Shown piece by piece: positions 15,438 to 64,000 of a DNA stretch of 64,000 nt (position 1 is its first letter; each line of letters starts with the position of its first letter). Origin of the DNA: a virus; IMG/VR virus record IMGVR_UViG_3300020204_000036, positions 19,771 to 83,770 of that record, one strand, 5' to 3'. The notes below the pieces were generated by a model, which was not told the origin of the DNA, ran no database searches, and was given only the letters and a program-made list of their open reading frames with translations. The position numbers and the translations under genes are program-made.

Positions 15438-17743
15438 TGGCTTGTTATACAGGATTAACAGACGGTGTTTATTCTTACGTTGATTGTTGTGGCGTCACAA
15501 GAACAGGGGCGTCTTTAGGTGAAAGTATTTGTTTGGACGGAGCTTTTTCTGGTTCGTCTTTTGGTATATATATTGACGAAACAAGTTCATGTAGTCCTAC
15601 TTGTGAAGAACAACCTTTAGGAATATCATTTTCCGTAACAGGTGTTTGTTCAGACCCAATAGGGTCAGTAACTTTTTCACCTTTTGGTGGTATACCACCA
15701 TATACTATCGATAATGTAATACCTGGTGGTATAAGTGCTCAAACTTCGTCATCACCAATAACATTCACAGGTCTAACTGCTGACACTTATGTTTTTAGAT
15801 TAAACGACTCTTTGGGTTATGAAAATAATGAATTATACATAAATGTTATAATAACAGGTTGTTTTTATACCGATATTATAGAAGTCACAGGAACAAACTG
15901 TGGTGAAAATAACGGAACTTTAACTGTAAGTGCAGATTCACAATCATCGCCTTATACTTTGTTTTTGAAAAATAGTGGCACGACATTACAATCGCAAACA
16001 ACAACTATTTTTCCATATACTTTTACAAATCTTTCTGCGGATACCTATTTTGTTCAAGTTGTTGATTACGGATTATCCACAGCCACAACAGCAAATGCAA
16101 TTATTTCGGGAAGTAGTTCTTTAGATTTTGGTTTTTGGAAAGTAAATACATCAACTTGTGTTATTAACCAAGGTAAATTATCGGTAACTGGAGTCACAGG
16201 AACACCACCATATACATATCTTTGGAGTAATGGAGAAACAGGACAAACAATAACAGGACTTACTTTAGGTGAATATAGTTGCACAGTAACGGATGCGAAT
16301 GGTTGTGTGACAACAAAAAGTGAAACTATAGGTCAGGCCGACCCATTAGGTGTTGGGATTGTAACTTCAGAAAATCCTACATGTTTTTCATCAAATGGCA
16401 GTATAACTTTTACAATCACGGGAGGTAGTGTTCCATATTATTATTCGGCTAGCACTTCACAAGTTGGATACACATTAAGCAATACTTTAACACTTTCAGG
16501 TTTATCAAGTGGAAATTACAATTTAGAAATAACTGACGGTAATTTTTGTAAAGAAACAATAAGTGCTTTCATAAATGCTACAAATTCATTTTTTGTTGTT
16601 GATACGCAAGTTATTAATTCAAACTGTAGTCAACAACTAGGCTCAGTTTCGATTTCACTTCAAGGCTCTAATAACTTTTATACATATATTCTATCAGGAC
16701 AAACTAATGGTTTATACTACACTAATACAACACAAAGTTTAACAAGTTCATTTTCAGGATTAACAAATGACACTTATGATTTGACAATATCGGCAACAGG
16801 AACCAATTGTGCATATACAACTTCATTTATTGTATCTTCAACCGATAAGTTCAGTATAACAACATCAACAACTGGCTCGACTTGTTCTCAAAATGACGGA
16901 ATTTTATACATCGAGGTAAGTAGCGGATATACTTTACCGTTAGATTATATATTAAGTGATGGTCAGTCGGTAATTGATACATCCGCAACGGCATACACCT
17001 TCAATAATTTGGTTGCGGGTAGTTATTCAATAATAATAGTTGATGGCGACGGTTGTCAAATTGAAGAAAGAGTTACCATATCAACAGGAGGTAGTTTATT
17101 GTCTGCAATTTCAACAACACAATGTTATAACGGTCAAAACGGAACTGCTGAAATTTTGATTTATGCGGGAGAACCAACATTTACTTATGATTGGTCAAAT
17201 AATGTACCATCAGGACAAACTGGCTCTACAATATCAGGATTAACCGCCGGAACTTATTCAGTGGAAGTTTTAGATAGTAGCGGGTGTTCACAAATACATG
17301 ATTTTACAATAACTTGCTTTGGAAATAATGTTTCCACTTATTCACTTGTAACTCTTTGTGAAAATACTTTTACGACAACAGTGGGGGATAAACGAGGGTT
17401 TTTAGAAATGTTAAATGAAGGGTATATCGATGTAACAAGTGGATATACAGGTTGTAGTTTGAATACTGCTGAATTCATACTTGAGTTAGATATAAATGGT
17501 TCAGGATACACCCAAACATTTTATACTGCGACAACACTAAATGATGTCCCACAAGATATACTATGGCAATCAACAATAGAAAGTGTTTTAAGTGGTATCA
17601 CAGACATTAGTCTTTATACTATTAGTTTAACTGATAATACAATCCACATTGAGTCAAATTGTGAAGGAGATTATGACCCATTATCTGACGCCAATTTTAC
17701 TTTGGAATTAACAATCGAATACGATGTAACTTGTTTTACTTAG
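15437..17743 (+). CDS. Cys/Thr-rich tail appendage protein with SprB-like repeats
   Basis: Repeated C...G.I...TGGTPPYTY.WSNG..G.TI.GL..G.Y.V.V.D.NGC units. Confidence 0.7.
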   Translation: MACYTGLTDGVYSYVDCCGVTRTGASLGESICLDGAFSGSSFGIYIDETSSCSPTCEEQPLGISFSVTGVCSDPIGSVTFSPFGGIPPYTIDNVIPGGISAQTSSSPITFTGLTADTYVFRLNDSLGYENNELYINVIITGCFYTDIIEVTGTNCGENNGTLTVSADSQSSPYTLFLKNSGTTLQSQTTTIFPYTFTNLSADTYFVQVVDYGLSTATTANAIISGSSSLDFGFWKVNTSTCVINQGKLSVTGVTGTPPYTYLWSNGETGQTITGLTLGEYSCTVTDANGCVTTKSETIGQADPLGVGIVTSENPTCFSSNGSITFTITGGSVPYYYSASTSQVGYTLSNTLTLSGLSSGNYNLEITDGNFCKETISAFINATNSFFVVDTQVINSNCSQQLGSVSISLQGSNNFYTYILSGQTNGLYYTNTTQSLTSSFSGLTNDTYDLTISATGTNCAYTTSFIVSSTDKFSITTSTTGSTCSQNDGILYIEVSSGYTLPLDYILSDGQSVIDTSATAYTFNNLVAGSYSIIIVDGDGCQIEERVTISTGGSLLSAISTTQCYNGQNGTAEILIYAGEPTFTYDWSNNVPSGQTGSTISGLTAGTYSVEVLDSSGCSQIHDFTITCFGNNVSTYSLVTLCENTFTTTVGDKRGFLEMLNEGYIDVTSGYTGCSLNTAEFILELDINGSGYTQTFYTATTLNDVPQDILWQSTIESVLSGITDISLYTISLTDNTIHIESNCEGDYDPLSDANFTLELTIEYDVTCFT

Positions 17744-56194: not shown

Positions 56195-56317
56195 ATGAAA
56201 AAAAAAGAGTTAGTCAAAGAAATAAAAAATCTAATAGAAAAATATCCTAACGATACAGAATTGGGATGTGAAATTAGAAAGTTATATATAAGTCTAAAAG
56301 AAAAAAAACAAAAATGA
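56195..56317 (+). CDS. Small hypothetical protein (40 aa)
   Basis: EKYPNDTELG.EIR; follows a promoter, ATGA overlap. Confidence 0.55.
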   Translation: MKKKELVKEIKNLIEKYPNDTELGCEIRKLYISLKEKKQK

Positions 56318-57384
56318 AAGTTACATTAGAATACGTTTGGTTAGATGGATACACGCCAGAACCAAATCTTAGAAGCAAAGTTAAAGTGGAAGAAATGGAT
56401 TTAAATTCAATAGAATTTAAATTTCCTGAATGGGGCTTTGATGGTTCATCTACAATGCAAGCAGATACTGATAACTCAGATATAATTCTTAAACCTGTTA
56501 AATATTACTCGCAAAAATCATTTCCTTTAGAAAATAGTAGAATTTATGTTTTATGTGAAGTAATGAATCCTGACGGAACACCACATGAATCAAACATGAG
56601 GTCCAAAATCGATGACCAAAGTGATGTTTGGTTTGGATTTGAACAGGAATATTTCATTAAAAACAAAAAAACAAATGAAATATTAGGACACGACACAGGT
56701 TTTAGATTAGAACCACAAGGTAAATATTATTGCGGAGTTGGTCACAATGTTGTTGGTCGTAGTTTTGCAGAAGAACATATGCGTTTATGTATGTTATATG
56801 GTATTGAAATTACTGGTATAAATGCAGAAGTTGCTCTTGGACAATGGGAATACCAAATTTTTTCAAAAGGGAGTTTGAACGCAGCTGATGATTTATGGAT
56901 GAGTAGATATTTCTTGTACAGATTGTCTGAAAACTTTAACTATGAAATAGTATTACACCCAAAACCAATTAATGGTGATTGGAATGGTTCAGGAATGCAC
57001 ACAAACTTTTCAAGTGATAGAATGAGAACATTAGGAGGTTATGAATATTTTCAATCTATTTTTAACACTTTTGGTTCTAGACACGAAGACCACATCAGAG
57101 AATATGGTTCAAGTAATGAAATGAGACTTACGGGTAAACACGAAACACAAAGTATTAATAAATATTCTTATGGTGTTGGAGATAGAGGTGCTTCCATAAG
57201 AATACCCAAAACTACTGCAGAAAATTGGAAAGGTTATTTAGAAGATAGAAGACCAGCATCAAATGCCGATTCTTACAGAGTTGTTAATCAGGTTTTAAAA
57301 TCTTTGAATGCTGCCGAAGAACTCATGGAAATCACAATGAAAATGAATTCAAAAGTTGATATAAAAAGTTTGGATGGTAAATAA
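56314..57384 (+). CDS. glnII: Glutamine synthetase type II
   Basis: LEYVWLDG, LRSK, WGFDGSST, FEQEY, GINAEVALGQWEYQ, DWNGSGMHTNFS, RLTGKHET, DRGASIRIP, YLEDRRPASN. Confidence 0.95.
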   Translation: MKVTLEYVWLDGYTPEPNLRSKVKVEEMDLNSIEFKFPEWGFDGSSTMQADTDNSDIILKPVKYYSQKSFPLENSRIYVLCEVMNPDGTPHESNMRSKIDDQSDVWFGFEQEYFIKNKKTNEILGHDTGFRLEPQGKYYCGVGHNVVGRSFAEEHMRLCMLYGIEITGINAEVALGQWEYQIFSKGSLNAADDLWMSRYFLYRLSENFNYEIVLHPKPINGDWNGSGMHTNFSSDRMRTLGGYEYFQSIFNTFGSRHEDHIREYGSSNEMRLTGKHETQSINKYSYGVGDRGASIRIPKTTAENWKGYLEDRRPASNADSYRVVNQVLKSLNAAEELMEITMKMNSKVDIKSLDGK

Positions 57385-58056: not shown

Positions 58057-58905
58057 ATGATAGAAACAGGAAAAATAATAAATGGTGATTGTATTGAAGT
58101 AATGAAAACACTTCCCGAAGGTAGTGTTGACCTTGTTGTTACTAGTTGTCCTTATGGTGTTGGTATTGATTATGATGTTCACGATGATGATGTTGAATTT
58201 GAGGATTATAAAATTTTCAGTCGTGATTGGTTAATGCAGGTTTATCGTGTATTAAAAGATGATGGTAGAATTGCTCTTAACATTCCTTATGAAATTAACA
58301 GACAGAAAAAAGGTGGACGTATCTTTTTTGTTTCAGAGATGTGGCAAATTATGAAAGAGATTGGTTATGGGTTCTTTGGTATTGTTGACCTTGAAGAACA
58401 ATCACCACATAGAAGTAAGACCACAGCATGGGGTTCTTGGATGAGTCCATCTTCACCCTACATATATAACCCAAAAGAATGTGTTATTTTAGCTTATAAA
58501 AAACATCATATTAAAAAAGTAAAAGGAGAACCTCAGTGGAAAGGTGTTCCTACAGAAATAGAACAAGAAGACGGAACAATAAAGAAAAAAACAGTATATG
58601 ATGAATCAGACAAAAAAGAATTTATTGAACTTGTTTATGGTCAGTGGAATTACTTTGCGGATACTAAGTCACTCACCAAGGCTACGTTCTCGATGGACAT
58701 ACCAACAAAGGCGATTAAGATATTATCCTACAAAAACGATGTAGTGTTAGACCCATTTGCGGGAAGTGGTACTAGTTTAGTGGCAGCCGAAGTATTAGGT
58801 AGAAGATGGTTAGGAATAGAACTATCACCAAACTATTCTGAAATTGCAAAAACAAGAGTTGAATATTTCAAAACAATGAAAGAAATTAAAAACCAAGAAT
58901 TATGA
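58057..58905 (+). CDS. Beta-class N4-C/N6-A DNA methyltransferase
   Basis: GDCIEVM, DLVVTSCPY, VLKDDG, VLDPFAGSGT, GIEL. Confidence 0.9.
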   Translation: MIETGKIINGDCIEVMKTLPEGSVDLVVTSCPYGVGIDYDVHDDDVEFEDYKIFSRDWLMQVYRVLKDDGRIALNIPYEINRQKKGGRIFFVSEMWQIMKEIGYGFFGIVDLEEQSPHRSKTTAWGSWMSPSSPYIYNPKECVILAYKKHHIKKVKGEPQWKGVPTEIEQEDGTIKKKTVYDESDKKEFIELVYGQWNYFADTKSLTKATFSMDIPTKAIKILSYKNDVVLDPFAGSGTSLVAAEVLGRRWLGIELSPNYSEIAKTRVEYFKTMKEIKNQEL

Positions 58906-59583: not shown

Positions 59584-60567
59584 ATGAAAACTCTAATAGT
59601 AGAAATATCAAGGATTAGACAAATGATGGGTATTATTGAAAGTATAGAAGATGATAAAAAAATATCAGACGAATATATGAGTTATCTTAGAAACACATCA
59701 ATTGATGACCAATTAAAACAAACAAATGATAAGAATTATCAAGAATTAAGAACAAAAGCTGTCGAAGCAGGGGGTAGACTTGCTCAATATGAAAAAATAG
59801 AAAATGCAACATCTTTAGATGAATTAATAAATTTATTTTCAAAAGACTGGGAGTTTAAGGATTATGTAAGAAATAATTTTTGTGGTGATGAAGAAATTGA
59901 TGGAATAATAGAAGTTTTATGTATTTTCAGTGGGGGGTCTAATGAAGAGTATTTAGGAAAAGAAAGATGTAATTGGCATAGAAGTGTATTTTCTAATTTA
60001 ACAATTGACACCAATTTACTTGACTTAATACCAGGACTTAAAGAAAAGGCATTAAAATTAAAAAGAATAAGTAGTACAAATAAAATAAAATCAAATTTTG
60101 AAACTACTCGGCCAAACATTGAAAAAAACAAACAAAGTATTAGTGCTGACCAATACATATCAAAACTAAACTACAGTGATGTTGGTTACAATAATGTCGA
60201 TACTGGTGGTAGTATGAGAAAATACGCCGAAGCGATATCAAAAGAAGACCCAAATGAAGTTGAATCGTTGGTAAAAAGTTTAATTAGTAGGTTTAAAGAC
60301 TTAATGACAACTAAAGTGAATAAAGAAATTAGCCGAGCCGGCATGAGTGAAAGTTGGGCATATTGGGATGTTGGTAAACAACTTTATTTTTATAATAATC
60401 CTGAAGAAAGTAATTATAAACTTGGAAATCCTTTAACCGATGAATCGATACAACAAACTATTATAAACAGAATGATTGGTTGGGAAGTTACAAATGGTGG
60501 GAAAAAACCTAATGGGGATAAATATTCTTCTAAAGAATTAGCAAATATTGGAGAAACTTATATATGA
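59584..60567 (+). CDS. Hypothetical protein with EISRIRQMMGIIE leader
   Basis: 327 aa; TATTTAT at 59572. Confidence 0.7.
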   Translation: MKTLIVEISRIRQMMGIIESIEDDKKISDEYMSYLRNTSIDDQLKQTNDKNYQELRTKAVEAGGRLAQYEKIENATSLDELINLFSKDWEFKDYVRNNFCGDEEIDGIIEVLCIFSGGSNEEYLGKERCNWHRSVFSNLTIDTNLLDLIPGLKEKALKLKRISSTNKIKSNFETTRPNIEKNKQSISADQYISKLNYSDVGYNNVDTGGSMRKYAEAISKEDPNEVESLVKSLISRFKDLMTTKVNKEISRAGMSESWAYWDVGKQLYFYNNPEESNYKLGNPLTDESIQQTIINRMIGWEVTNGGKKPNGDKYSSKELANIGETYI

Positions 60568-62081
60568 AAATCATAATCACAGAAAATCAACTAAAGTCTC
60601 TTATTTCAGAATCAGGTATTAGAAACATAAATGATTTATTAAATAGATATAAAAAGGCTAAAATATATTTTCATCAAGATTTAGATGGTGTTGCAACGGC
60701 AATTGCAATGAAAAAATATCTAGAAAACCAAGGTTTCAAAGTTGTTGATTGTGAGGTTATCCAATATGGTGAAAAAGAATGGGCAATAAAGAGAGCAGAC
60801 ATTAGTGATGATGCTCGTGGAGAAATAATGCCAGTACTTGTAGATTTTGCACACGGGAAACCTATGTTTGAAATTCATACTGACCACCACGACAGTCAAG
60901 TTGGTGTTGAAAAAGAAACATCAACCAGTTTTAAAAGTGCTAGGTCAAATGTAGAAACAATATCACAAACAGTATCACCAAAAGAGTTATTCACCGCTAC
61001 CGATTTATCTATTATTTCAATGGTGGATTCAGCTAACTATGCAACACATGACATAACCCCCAAAATGGTAATGAATTTTATATATAAATTTGATGAAAGT
61101 AAAACAAGTCGAGATAATATGATTATGTTGGGTTTAGTAACTAACAAATTACTGTTAGCTTATAAAAACTATCCGAATTTTATGGAAGATTTGGTTATGA
61201 GAGCCGAACCTTCTATAAAAAATATCTACAATATCATAAAAGAATTTGCTATAGAGAGAAACTATGTAGATATCGATACTATGATTAAAAATCAAGAAAA
61301 ATACTTAATAGATAGAAAAGAAGGGACTAAAAGTAATTCTGGTGTTGAAGTGGTTGGTAATATTTTAACACAGATGGATTTGGGGTCCATGAAAAAAGGT
61401 TCATATGATAGATATGTTCCATTTGAACTATATCCCGATGCAGACTTTTTGGTCACAGGTTTAGGAGGTCAAGTAGGTATGGTTCAAGCTTCTTGTAATC
61501 CATATAAAAAAGAGAGAGCGTTAAAAGGAATTGATTTAGGTAAAATTAAAGATGAAGTTTTAGATTTTTTCAAACCTGAACTAGAAAATGAAATATTGAC
61601 ATATGAAATAATTAAAAAAATTGCAGAAAAAAAGGCAACAGATGAATCTGTTGGTTTTACAACAAGAGATTTTGAAGCCATTTATGGTGGGTTACCGTCA
61701 TTTGAAAATAACTCAATAAATGCTTACGATTTTTTAAAGGCAAACTCAGGAGGACACAAATGTATTACAAATGTATCAGGAATTAATTATGTATATAGTG
61801 GTTACGATAAACCATATACAAAAGATTTACCTGAAGAATTGTTACCAATTGCAAATTATGATGGTGATAATAATTTTGTTAATGATATTAAAAAACAACT
61901 TTTAAGGTTTAGAAGATTATCTGAAAAACAGGTAGAAGCGGCCATAAGACAATTAAAAAAAGAAAACAAATTTAATTCAGATTACGTAGAAACTTCAAGT
62001 TCAAGAACCAGTAGAGATTTGGTAATTGATATGAGAAATAAGTTTATTAATATTCTACAAAGAAAAATTGATAAAAATTAA
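60564..62081 (+). CDS. DHH-family phosphoesterase with IITE..LISE leader
   Basis: FHQDLDG, LVDF, TDHH, SGGH. Confidence 0.75.
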   Translation: MKIIITENQLKSLISESGIRNINDLLNRYKKAKIYFHQDLDGVATAIAMKKYLENQGFKVVDCEVIQYGEKEWAIKRADISDDARGEIMPVLVDFAHGKPMFEIHTDHHDSQVGVEKETSTSFKSARSNVETISQTVSPKELFTATDLSIISMVDSANYATHDITPKMVMNFIYKFDESKTSRDNMIMLGLVTNKLLLAYKNYPNFMEDLVMRAEPSIKNIYNIIKEFAIERNYVDIDTMIKNQEKYLIDRKEGTKSNSGVEVVGNILTQMDLGSMKKGSYDRYVPFELYPDADFLVTGLGGQVGMVQASCNPYKKERALKGIDLGKIKDEVLDFFKPELENEILTYEIIKKIAEKKATDESVGFTTRDFEAIYGGLPSFENNSINAYDFLKANSGGHKCITNVSGINYVYSGYDKPYTKDLPEELLPIANYDGDNNFVNDIKKQLLRFRRLSEKQVEAAIRQLKKENKFNSDYVETSSSRTSRDLVIDMRNKFINILQRKIDKN

Positions 62082-62239
62082 AAAGATTTAACAACTTTTT
62101 GTAATCATTGATATATTTATACTTATCTCAAAAATTTTTAATAAATTTTTATTGTTTTATTTGACTAATCGAAATATTAGTTTTAAATTTGTAAAACAAT
62201 TGGGAAACGTCCCGTTGTATAATTTGAAAAATTGAAAAT

Positions 62240-62383
62240 ATGAGTGAAGATTTAATCACCACTTCAGAGATTTTCTATTACTTTGATGATAAAGGAAAAA
62301 AACTTTATACGTCAAATGAAGTCTTTGCAAGTATAAGAGCAAACTACCACGGAACGGTAAAAGTTTTTGTAGAAAATATTTAA
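62240..62383 (+). CDS. Small hypothetical protein (47 aa)
   Basis: MSEDLITTSEIFYYFDDKGKKLYTSN...; own promoter and 5' hairpin. Confidence 0.55.
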   Translation: MSEDLITTSEIFYYFDDKGKKLYTSNEVFASIRANYHGTVKVFVENI

Positions 62384-62436
62384 AAAAAATTCACAGAGAC
62401 TTGTTTTTTTAAAATAAAAGACATAACTTTGTAAAA

Positions 62437-62495
62437 CATTTGAAACCTGAAGGAGATGAAAGATACTCGGTATTCAAATGGTAAGTTCTTTGAAA
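62437..62495 (+). promoter_or_regulatory. rrn-leader-like hairpin plus boxA-like element
   Basis: CATTTGAA/TTCAAATG stem (62437-62480), then AGTTCTTTGAAA (62484-62495). Confidence 0.55.
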
Positions 62496-62579
62496 TTCTA
62501 ACGAACAAATTGTTCAAACAAAATTTGAAATAAAAGATTAACCCCCTTTTCTTTAAAATTTGTGAAACAAAGAGTTCAA

Positions 62580-63395
62580 TGGGCCGTGTATGGTCCACTA
62601 AAATAAACCATGAAAGTGGGATAAAGTAAGTCAGAAGTGTAACTGATTTGCGTCTTGATTGTCTTCGGACAATCGAGGTCGAGTACACAAGCGGGAAACC
62701 GTTTAACCTTGAGTACTGAGGGCAACGCTGTAAGAAAAGTGGTTAAATGATTGGGCGATGTGGGTCGTCTGATTGAGGTGGGAACACCAATAGGAATAAC
62801 CCGTAGGAATATTTGCAAAAAATGAAGTTATCCAATTTCATTATTGCGTTTTCCAATATTAAAGGATACTTAAAACTGAAAGGTATGTTAAAGTACGAGT
62901 GGTGTCGTTATTAACCTTAATGAGTCTTTACCAAAAGATTTGTTTCGAAGTAGTCTTGAAATATGGAAATGGGGACATTTCACGGAGTAGTTGAGTATTG
63001 ACTTGTTCAAAAGATAGGTCAGCTCGGGTGGCGGACCACTACTTCGACAATCCACAACACAAAAACTTATTATTATAATTAATAACCATTAAGAATAAAT
63101 TAAGGAAAAGTGTCCGTCAGGTTTGAATGAAAGGTGACTACATAGTAATGAGCCGTTCATTGCACACGAAGGTCCCAAGCTGACGTGTAATTATCCGAAA
63201 AACCTTTAGTCCCGCAAGGACGAATTGGGGAGGCATCCTCAAAAAGAGTCAAGTAAGATGAGAGTAATTCAAACCTCAAGGAATGGTAAACCTAAAAGAC
63301 CGTCACTGAGAAATACTTCTCAAAAGGAAGTGGATAAGAGTAGAAACGATAATGACTCTAAAGGTTCTCACAACAAACGTGTAATCTCAGCGTTT
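62580..63395 (+). ncRNA. Giant ornate structured RNA, GOLLD-like (family unconfirmed)
   Basis: ~815-nt GC-elevated region without a credible ORF; UUCG- and GNRA-capped hairpins; long-range 10-bp helix; promoter upstream, terminator downstream. Confidence 0.7.
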
Positions 63396-63426
63396 TTTTT
63401 AATGGAGCCCACCGGTAAAAAATTTG

Positions 63427-63456
63427 ATGGATAAGGAAAAACTTATCCATTTTTTT
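63427..63456 (+). terminator. Intrinsic terminator
   Basis: ATGGATAAG-gaaaaa-CTTATCCAT plus T run. Confidence 0.85.
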
Positions 63457-63488
63457 GTGCGTTTAATTTTTTTTACTATCTTTGTTGT

Positions 63489-63914
63489 ATGGAAAACGCA
63501 TATAAAACAGGATACGTACTAAAAGACAAAGACATTAAGTTTATAAAAAATTACTGTAAAACCTTAGAAATAAAAACTAATGGATACCCTTATCATGGGT
63601 ATCCTGATACATGGGCAGTCTTAATTAATTCAACAATAAAAATTACTTCAATTAGAAAATATAAAAACCGGTATACTTGGGTAAAAAAAGATTTTGTCTA
63701 TGAAGTTGATGTTGAAATTGATGTTAAAAATAGCAAGTATATGGAACAAAACAAATGTTCCCAATGGTATATTAGACAAGATTTTATTCGTGGAGTCAAA
63801 AGAATGAACCGAAGATATAGAGATGCGATTACCACTTACATTTATAATGAATTAAAATACATGAATGTTGATGATGCACTTACTTTATCAAAAATTAAAT
63901 GGATAATTGAATAA
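63489..63914 (+). CDS. Hypothetical protein (probably early)
   Basis: 141 aa behind TTTG-N19-TATCTTTG. Confidence 0.65.
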   Translation: MENAYKTGYVLKDKDIKFIKNYCKTLEIKTNGYPYHGYPDTWAVLINSTIKITSIRKYKNRYTWVKKDFVYEVDVEIDVKNSKYMEQNKCSQWYIRQDFIRGVKRMNRRYRDAITTYIYNELKYMNVDDALTLSKIKWIIE

Positions 63915-63958
63915 AAAAATTTGGTTTATTAAAAAAAAACAATTACATTTGTAAACAT

Positions 63959-64000
63959 ATGGCAACAGTAAAAAACATACTTCTTGTTCACCCAAAATAT
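63959..64000 (+). CDS. 5' fragment of the next gene
   Basis: ATG after TACATTTG promoter; open to window end. Confidence 0.5.
   Translation, partial: MATVKNILLVHPKY

Follow-up and report, generated by a model that had tools for sequence, protein, structure and literature searches.

A full-length GOLLD RNA in a large uncultured lake phage, with a leader similar to those of Bacteroidota ribosomal RNA

The GOLLD locus

We have studied a stretch of 64,000 nucleotides (nt) of viral DNA, called the window in what follows, which corresponds to bases 19771-83770 of the IMG/VR virus record IMGVR_UViG_3300020204_000036. At 62578-63395, on the + strand, it contains an RNA of 818 nt with two domains, which is almost certainly a full-length member of the GOLLD family, known since 2009. 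The whole record has 83,770 bases and is rated 29% complete by CheckV, so that the complete genome would have some 290 kilobases (kb). The record is a piece of the DNA of a large AT-rich phage from a lake, whose host probably belongs to the Bacteroidota. The RNA is preceded by a leader region similar to those of ribosomal RNA (rRNA). Taken as a whole, the best explanation of the locus, a GOLLD RNA which would form a cage and would be transcribed behind an rRNA-style leader, appears to us highly probable.

The RNA is found in the largest gap of the window between open reading frames (ORFs) of at least 90 amino acids. This gap spans 62082-63488 and has 1407 nt; the next one has 915 nt. The stretch 62580-63395 has a G+C content of 0.39, as compared with 0.307 in the whole window. 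An initial annotation of this DNA, made from the sequence alone, had described here the largest non-coding, GC-raised stretch, in agreement with these values. The single sequence folds with a z score of -5.53, and none of 20 shuffles folded as well.

Identity of the RNA

A scan of the whole window with Rfam gives a single match at gathering thresholds, the covariance model of GOLLD (RF02032). It is found at 62983-63393 on the + strand, with 315.8 bits and an E value of 1.4e-89: this is twice the gathering score, which is 150. All the positions of the model are covered, from 1 to 416 of 416. In a permissive scan of 62100-63600 only two eukaryotic families appear besides GOLLD at an E value of 1 or less, both of them far below the cut-off. 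The initial annotation had proposed a GOLLD-like giant RNA of about 815 nt and had indicated an Rfam scan as the way to check it; the scan and the homology of the 5' half, described below, identify a GOLLD of 818 nt.

The size of the RNA and its dense structure might also be expected in a self-splicing intron, an RNase P, a ROOL or an OLE RNA, and a protein-coding gene might be considered in view of two minus-strand ORFs of 102 and 80 amino acids which overlap the 5' part. ROOL, OLE, introns and RNase P are excluded as far as Rfam can tell, because no family other than GOLLD reaches its threshold. As for coding, the four longest ORFs which overlap the stretch have no Pfam family, its six frames are all stop-rich, with a longest open run of 83 codons, and the changes found among related sequences keep base pairs, not frames. 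We consider that the probability of any of these alternatives is negligible.

The Rfam model of GOLLD represents only the conserved 3' region, so that the 5' half of the RNA falls outside it. We have compared both halves with a set of at least 118 stretches of viral contigs, collected with a pattern of two parts which derives from the conserved 3' end. All 118 listed loci come from viral contigs and the window itself belongs to a virus record, which corresponds to a phage setting. With nhmmer the 3' half matches 111 of the 118 loci. The 5' half (query 62560-62985) matches 66 of them, with up to 316.6 bits; these matches are mostly full length and start at about position 19 of the query, which is position 62578 of the window. 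Both halves are found side by side in 58 loci, of which 51 are distinct. These distinct full-length relatives were aligned with the window: the alignment has 52 rows of 769-839 nt and a mean column identity of 72%.

The initial annotation had also considered a new class of RNA. It is true that no database family exists for the 5' half (62578-62982) by itself, as Rfam models the 3' half only. A new class of giant RNA which merely resembles GOLLD is nevertheless extremely improbable: the 3' half matches the entire model, and the 5' half, which can be aligned over its full length, is attached to 3' domains of GOLLD in the viral loci which it matches. In the available text of PMC12286853, GOLLD is described as a conserved 3' region accompanied by a less conserved 5' region. 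This is what we find: an RNA of 818 nt, in which the 5' region has fewer matches than the 3' region.

The RNA itself is thus an ordinary member of its family, found at once by a standard Rfam scan. Its presence in a lake phage is to be expected, since GOLLD is an already known family.

The features of the locus are as follows. Names of helices and loops, such as L20 or P21a, are those of the solved structure discussed below.
62400-62431, + strand: Bacteroidota-type promoter-like site, with CTTG, 20 nt and then TAACTTTG at 62424-62431.
62437-62480, + strand: leader hairpin in a boxB-like position, between the promoter and the boxA-like word (predicted fold).
62485-62495, + strand: boxA-like word GTTCTTTGAAA, shared by related loci and Bacteroidota 16S leaders.
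62496-62577, + strand: spacer of 82 nt, variable among relatives, which separates the boxA-like word from the GOLLD core.
62578-62982, + strand: GOLLD 5' domain, corresponding to the part which caps the cage in the solved homologue (nhmmer matches and 21 covarying helices).
62760-62764, + strand: loop GUGGG of a hairpin in the 5' domain, pairing with 63051-63055.
62983-63046, + strand: first hairpin of the 3' region, where the Rfam model starts (Rfam match and covariation).
63047-63118, + strand: single-stranded junction, presumably J13/15, including the AT-rich variable linker at about 63056-63100 (unpaired and poorly conserved in the Rfam model).
63103-63104, + strand: GG of the junction, facing the L20 loop (co-variation with 63175-63176).
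63119-63393, + strand: conserved core of the GOLLD 3' domain (alignment to the model; 9 of the 10 pairs of helix 63119-63128/63267-63276 are compensatory).
63171-63181, + strand: hairpin, presumably L20, with CC in its loop at 63175-63176 (the loop co-varies with 63103-63104).
63209-63221, + strand: hairpin GUCC-CGCAA-GGAC, presumably P21a/L21a, with a putative self-complementary kissing loop (GC/CG switch in the loop).
63228-63239, + strand: hairpin with a GGCA loop, presumably P21b/L21b (all the variants listed have GC in the loop).
63393-63400, + strand: eight consecutive T, immediately behind the final hairpin of GOLLD, 63377-63380/63390-63393 (sequence; the helix covaries).
63426-63458, + strand: terminator-like hairpin of 10 pairs followed by TTTTTTG (a pattern match only).

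Secondary structure and covariation

The consensus structure obtained with RNAalifold from the 52 rows has 180 pairs. In 133 of them at least one sequence has changed on both sides and is still paired: the covariation which the initial annotation had suggested to look for is clearly present. The pairs can be grouped into 34 covarying helices, and all but one of them are fully formed in the sequence of the window.

The individual stems that had been read from the single sequence have had a different fate, even if every sequence string quoted for them is found in the window at the position given. The stems at 62777-62788 and 62966-62981 are paired in 100% of the rows, with double changes in every pair. 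The GCAA-capped stem at 63209-63221 is also retained: it is 86% paired and has a stem of 4 base pairs with a CGCAA loop. In the case of 62654-62677 the base of the stem is supported by the alignment, whereas the tip corresponds to an insertion that about 22 of the 52 rows have. The stem at 62689-62704 has been discarded. It is only 76% paired and its place is taken by two helices of longer range, 62691-62695/62800-62804 and 62700-62708/62741-62749.

A perfect long-range helix had also been proposed between 62945-62954 and 63038-63047. The two segments are exact reverse complements, but the alignment does not support their pairing in the native RNA: 78.8% of the cells are paired, none of the 10 pairs has changed on both sides and the result is no better than with shuffled partners. 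The true partner of 63038-63046 is 62983-62991, with 99.8% of the cells paired, compensatory changes in 5 of 9 pairs and no shuffle as good among 500; in the Rfam model this helix comes first. On the other side, 62948-62956 pairs with 62863-62871 and closes a junction of the 5' domain. The perfect helix, which is not native, is found because GAAGTAGT and GGAGTAGT are near-repeats.

The AT-rich linker, placed by the initial annotation at about 63055-63105, does exist and has a G+C content of 0.18. It had been taken as the limit between two domains, which it is not: it lies within the 3' region, after its first hairpin, and the border of the domains is found at 62982/62983.

An additional contact joins the two domains. 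The loop GUGGG of a hairpin of the 5' domain (62760-62764) pairs with 63051-63055, just before the linker. These 5 base pairs are formed in 98.5% of the cells, 4 of them have double changes, and there are 24 compensatory cells, compared with 2.4 in shuffles. None of 500 shuffles is as good, and registers slid along the sequence reach at most 45.2%. This contact is well supported; it is not mentioned in the available text on the GOLLD structure, and it may be present in the published figures.

The leader region

In the window the GOLLD core is preceded by CTTG-N20-TAACTTTG, a hairpin, the word GTTCTTTGAAA and the spacer. The order of promoter, hairpin and word is the same in 29 distinct related leaders. 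The promoter-like site has the pattern TAnnTTTG, which we take to be the -7 box of Bacteroidota; its density in the window, 1.70 per kb in intergenic DNA versus 0.90 per kb in coding DNA, is suggestive only. A shorter hairpin is found between box and word in the related leaders: its two arms change together across the 29 sequences and pairing is kept.

The word stands out by its conservation. As the exact 9-mer GTTCTTTGA it is found on the same strand, at no more than 200 nt upstream of GOLLD, in 48 of the 50 aligned loci which have at least 100 nt of upstream DNA. On the opposite strand of the same upstream regions it is never found (0 of 50), and in the downstream regions it appears in 5 of 50. 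The sequence around it differs between clades while the 9-mer stays. Its usual position is about 35 nt after the TAnnTTTG box; in the window this distance is 61 nt. The window has three copies of the word, and the one at 62485-62495 is the only one in intergenic DNA: the other two are inside long ORFs.

The same 9-mer is found in rRNA leaders of Bacteroidota. It is exact in 14 of 24 distinct 16S leaders, at 85-217 nt before the 5' end of 16S, where about 0.001 copies per leader are expected by chance. Variants with one or two different letters are present in three more leaders: two of them belong to the 24 and the third one comes from Winogradskyella (L161), which is outside this count, with an upstream stretch that is too short. 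The leaders were taken from genomes reached through the GOLLD loci, including one Saprospiraceae, and from a sample of 46 genomes of the phylum of Fulvivirga (Bacteroidota); seven loci with too little upstream DNA and one duplicate were left out.

The 9-mer is also associated with other stable RNAs. It has 85 copies with distinct contexts across the loci: 55 of them are before GOLLD, 5 are at no more than 400 nt before a tRNA of the same strand and 25 are elsewhere. In four loci (L023, L050, L069 and L089) it lies only 23-30 nt before phage tRNAs of the same strand, for Gln, Asn, Leu and Leu respectively. Since it precedes tRNAs in these loci, it seems that these phages employ it generally for stable RNAs.

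According to the available text of PMC10250234, the leader of rRNA operons (rrn) contains a promoter, the boxB hairpin and boxA; the antitermination complex is formed with NusA, NusB, NusE, NusG, SuhB and S4, and boxA is necessary and sufficient for it. The leader of the window is similar in the order of its elements, in its long, untranslated and structured product, and in a word which is identical to that of the 14 Bacteroidota leaders. It differs in its cargo, which is a phage RNA instead of rRNA. We think that GTTCTTTGAAA is probably a boxA antitermination leader, because the word is found both upstream of 48 of the 50 GOLLD loci and in 14 of the 24 Bacteroidota 16S leaders.

On this basis we can propose how the RNA would be made. 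A host-type promoter at about 62400-62431 would drive the synthesis of an untranslated stable RNA. Its transcript would pass through the hairpin and GTTCTTTGAAA, the putative boxA of Bacteroidota rRNA leaders, which would load the host NusB/NusE and their partners on RNA polymerase. The untranslated transcript of 0.9 kb could then escape Rho and would fold while it is made. GOLLD would thus be produced as the host produces its rRNA, with a host promoter, a hairpin, the boxA of the phylum and antitermination of the NusB/NusE type through a folded transcript; we favour this proposal by a small measure. Perhaps the antitermination factors also help GOLLD to fold. In the literature searched, with subscription papers and supplements outside it, we did not find any link of GOLLD to boxA or antitermination; the text of Kretsch et al. 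(PMC12286853) contains neither boxA nor Nus nor antitermination.

Several observations speak against an antitermination leader. The exact 9-mer is absent from 2 of the 50 GOLLD loci and from 10 of the 24 16S leaders. The predicted hairpin of the window (62437-62480) differs from the one common to its relatives, and the fold of its leader, with a z score of -1.14, is no better than shuffles. No consensus structure is found in the spacer 62496-62577 across 40 loci; the relatives have spacers of about 7 nt at the shortest and about 100 nt at the longest. A complement of the boxA-like word downstream of the RNA was not seen, a result obtained by eye, with no formal search for boxC or for a leader-trailer helix. 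A frame of 25 codons behind AAGGAG (62455-62532, + strand) also overlaps the leader hairpin and the word, as seen by eye.

Alternatively, GTTCTTTGAAA might be something other than an antitermination signal. The RNA could be processed there, a phage protein could bind to it, it could belong to the frame 62455-62532, or it could simply have been inherited together with the promoter region. The poor fold of the leader, the failure to identify by eye a boxC or a leader-trailer helix and the 25 copies of the word which precede neither GOLLD nor tRNA are in favour of such a role. We find it rather doubtful, although it deserves attention, when we consider that the 9-mer is kept exact in nearly all loci although its flanks differ between clades, that identity with the 16S leaders greatly exceeds chance, that the word also precedes phage tRNAs at short distance, and that the elements have the order of an rrn leader. 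The boxA reading remains our choice.

Other features have been noticed in the leaders. Seven GOLLD loci with another type of 5' domain also have the word, at about 390-560 nt before the 3' domain (L021, L005, L104, L051, L040, L049 and L093). A second conserved word, GATTATCC or a near variant, is present about 15-25 nt after the boxA-like word in some 30 related leaders; it could be a boxC-like element. In its place the window has GATTAACC, at about 62533-62540.

The motif TTTGTRAAACA has 5 matches in the window, compared with 0.78 expected. Three copies on the + strand are found within 400 nt, all of them intergenic (62188-62198, 62428-62438 and 62559-62569). The first two overlap TAnnTTTG boxes, one before an ORF of 47 amino acids and the other before the GOLLD leader. 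We do not claim a second promoter at 62551-62569: its TGAAAC part is common to the relatives as the approach to the core.

GOLLD in RNA libraries

In RNA libraries we find close relatives of both the GOLLD RNA and its leader. A search in a sequence index gave 6 metatranscriptome entries with 0.21-0.24 of the words of the stretch, together with 14 entries of lake-water DNA which have half of the words or more. Three studies (lake, river and marine) provided four RNA runs, which we have compared with the region 61800-64000. Contigs which are 88-99% alike on 62540-63427 are found in all four runs. One contig (X17, record 16) spans 62217-62627, through the leader and into the core; another one (X15) spans 62226-62494.

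These contigs must be read with some reserves as far as the production of the RNA is concerned: they come from relatives, they may include DNA, they carry no information on strand, ends, level or timing, and their depth cannot be ranked. In the four runs no contig maps on 61800-62169 or on 63428-64000. These empty flanks say nothing on the limits of the transcript, because it was GOLLD itself that served to find the runs, and the flanks of relatives would not map.

Comparison with other GOLLD RNAs

The best reference for the window is the GOLLD called env-38, with 833 nt, whose structure has been solved as a cage of 14 identical RNAs with D7 symmetry (Kretsch et al. 2025, PMC12286853). [quoted passage not shown] A switch between GC and CG is described there for the self-pairing loop L21a, and in L21b the GC is kept.

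The window is similar to env-38 in many respects. Both have about 800 nt, two domains, a phage origin and an aquatic source. The 3' region of the window (62983-63395) has 413 nt, as many as residues 421-833 of env-38. By offset, the linker 497-538 is placed at 63059-63100, which is the AT-rich stretch; its length varies among the rows of the alignment. Being a linker inside the 3' region, this stretch is therefore not a divider of two domains. Residues 656-657 fall by offset within 4 nt of the GC/CG of the loop at 63209-63221, as expected for L21a: in this loop 38 rows have GC and 13 have CG. The loop of the hairpin 63228-63239 keeps its GC, as described for L21b.

A further likeness concerns the bridge between chains. 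In all 52 rows the letters of the junction and of the facing loop co-vary: GG is found with CC, GC with GC and UCG with UCG. In the window they are GG (63103-63104) and CC (63175-63176). This co-variation fits a kissing loop of L20 with J13/15 which would bridge different chains.

A different type of GOLLD is found in Streptococcus agalactiae and other Lactobacillales. The available text of PMC12990946 describes a 3' domain which forms decamers and lacks P9, P11a-c and P21b, the latter being present in the type that forms 14-mers. The Streptococcus loci share with the window the conserved 3' domain and give a weak match to its 3' half, with E values from 6.5e-07 to 6.4e-04. They differ in that none of them matches the 5' domain of the window, which in addition has a hairpin of the P21b type. 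The window is thus of the env-38 kind, because it has this hairpin, which the Streptococcus type lacks.

From these comparisons we can suggest how the RNA would behave after transcription. On folding it would form two domains, a 5' cap and a 3' ring, and its copies would self-assemble into a closed cage made of RNA only, with the AT-rich linker inside. The 14-mer type is the most likely one, because both the P21b hairpin and a full 5' domain are present. We believe that such a fold and cage are fairly probable, with a somewhat better chance than the mode of transcription proposed above. Two points have to be weighed against this. The names J13/15, L20, L21a and L21b have been assigned by offset from the numbers in the available text of PMC12286853. 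Furthermore, the GOLLD of Lactobacillus brevis accumulates in lytic growth and is dispensable for phage production, as far as the available part of PMC7567579 shows.

As to the role of the cage, our best guess is that it might hold or shield RNA or ribonucleoprotein of the host or the phage late in infection, which is speculative and on the whole unlikely to be right in this form. Another suggestion relates the cage to tRNA biology: it might, for instance, store or protect tRNAs which are embedded or neighbouring, a role proposed for GOLLDs found inside tRNA arrays. GOLLD is often, but not always, near tRNA genes, and tRNAs are sometimes embedded in its linker, according to the available texts of PMC12286853 and PMC12990946; among the loci which we have studied, 30 of 112 have a tRNA within about 1.5 kb. 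The window is different: env-38 is downstream of a tRNA-Met, as described in the same available text, and at our locus there is no tRNA nearby. No tRNA gene is found in the window, in the rest of the 83.8-kb record or in the linker, with the record representing only about 29% of the genome. A function in tRNA biology looks improbable to us.

Neighbouring genes and other phages

The proteins that flank the RNA locus mostly have no family. Among the nearby ORFs there are an SbcC-like nuclease and a DNA methylase. The latter is an N6/N4 DNA methylase (58057-58905); an ORF at 56314-57384 is glutamine-synthetase-like, with matches to both Pfam domains. Directly upstream of the locus, an ORF of 505 amino acids (60564-62081) has a match to DHH which is below threshold. 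The ORF of 47 amino acids mentioned above (62240-62383, + strand) has no family; it is preceded by a TAAATTTG box of its own and by a hairpin with a GAAA loop. It is covered by contigs of two RNA libraries which begin at about 62217-62226.

The assignment of the host to Bacteroidota is suggested indirectly by the TAnnTTTG boxes of the locus and by the presence in the leader of the word of Bacteroidota rrn operons. A weaker hint is given by one short contig binned as Flavobacterium sp., which carries the same type of 5' domain; in the scan of genomes, which gave 40 pattern matches, most of them by chance, it was the only carrier of this type.

Viral contigs with GOLLD are often very large, with 250-483 kb (L067, L035, L072, L053, L038, L045, L080, L039 and L017), and this type of GOLLD seems to be common in jumbo phages. 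In the phage database we find 8 records, all of them with partial matches to the 3' half: one is an uncultured phage of 635 kb and seven are records of Acinetobacter phages. The latter have about 98 kb (KM672662.1/NC_027332.1 at 16761-17051, MW316733.1, OR180307.1 and others) and show about 75% identity to part of the GOLLD 3' domain, in a stretch which has no annotated feature. Judging from this similarity, it is probably an unannotated GOLLD.

Conclusions

The value of the RNA which we have described is that it provides a clean, full-length GOLLD with two domains from a large uncultured lake phage. Beyond its membership in the family, the locus offers a corrected map of base pairs, a contact of 5 base pairs between a loop of the 5' domain and the junction, and a leader of the rRNA style. 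If the boxA of this leader works, it would explain how phages carry a long untranslated RNA past Rho, and it would link GOLLD to the machinery that makes the stable RNAs of the host. The synthesis of GOLLD would then depend on the transcription machinery of rRNA and may compete for it. Experiments would then have a first point of attack on GOLLD, an RNA which has had no known function since 2009.

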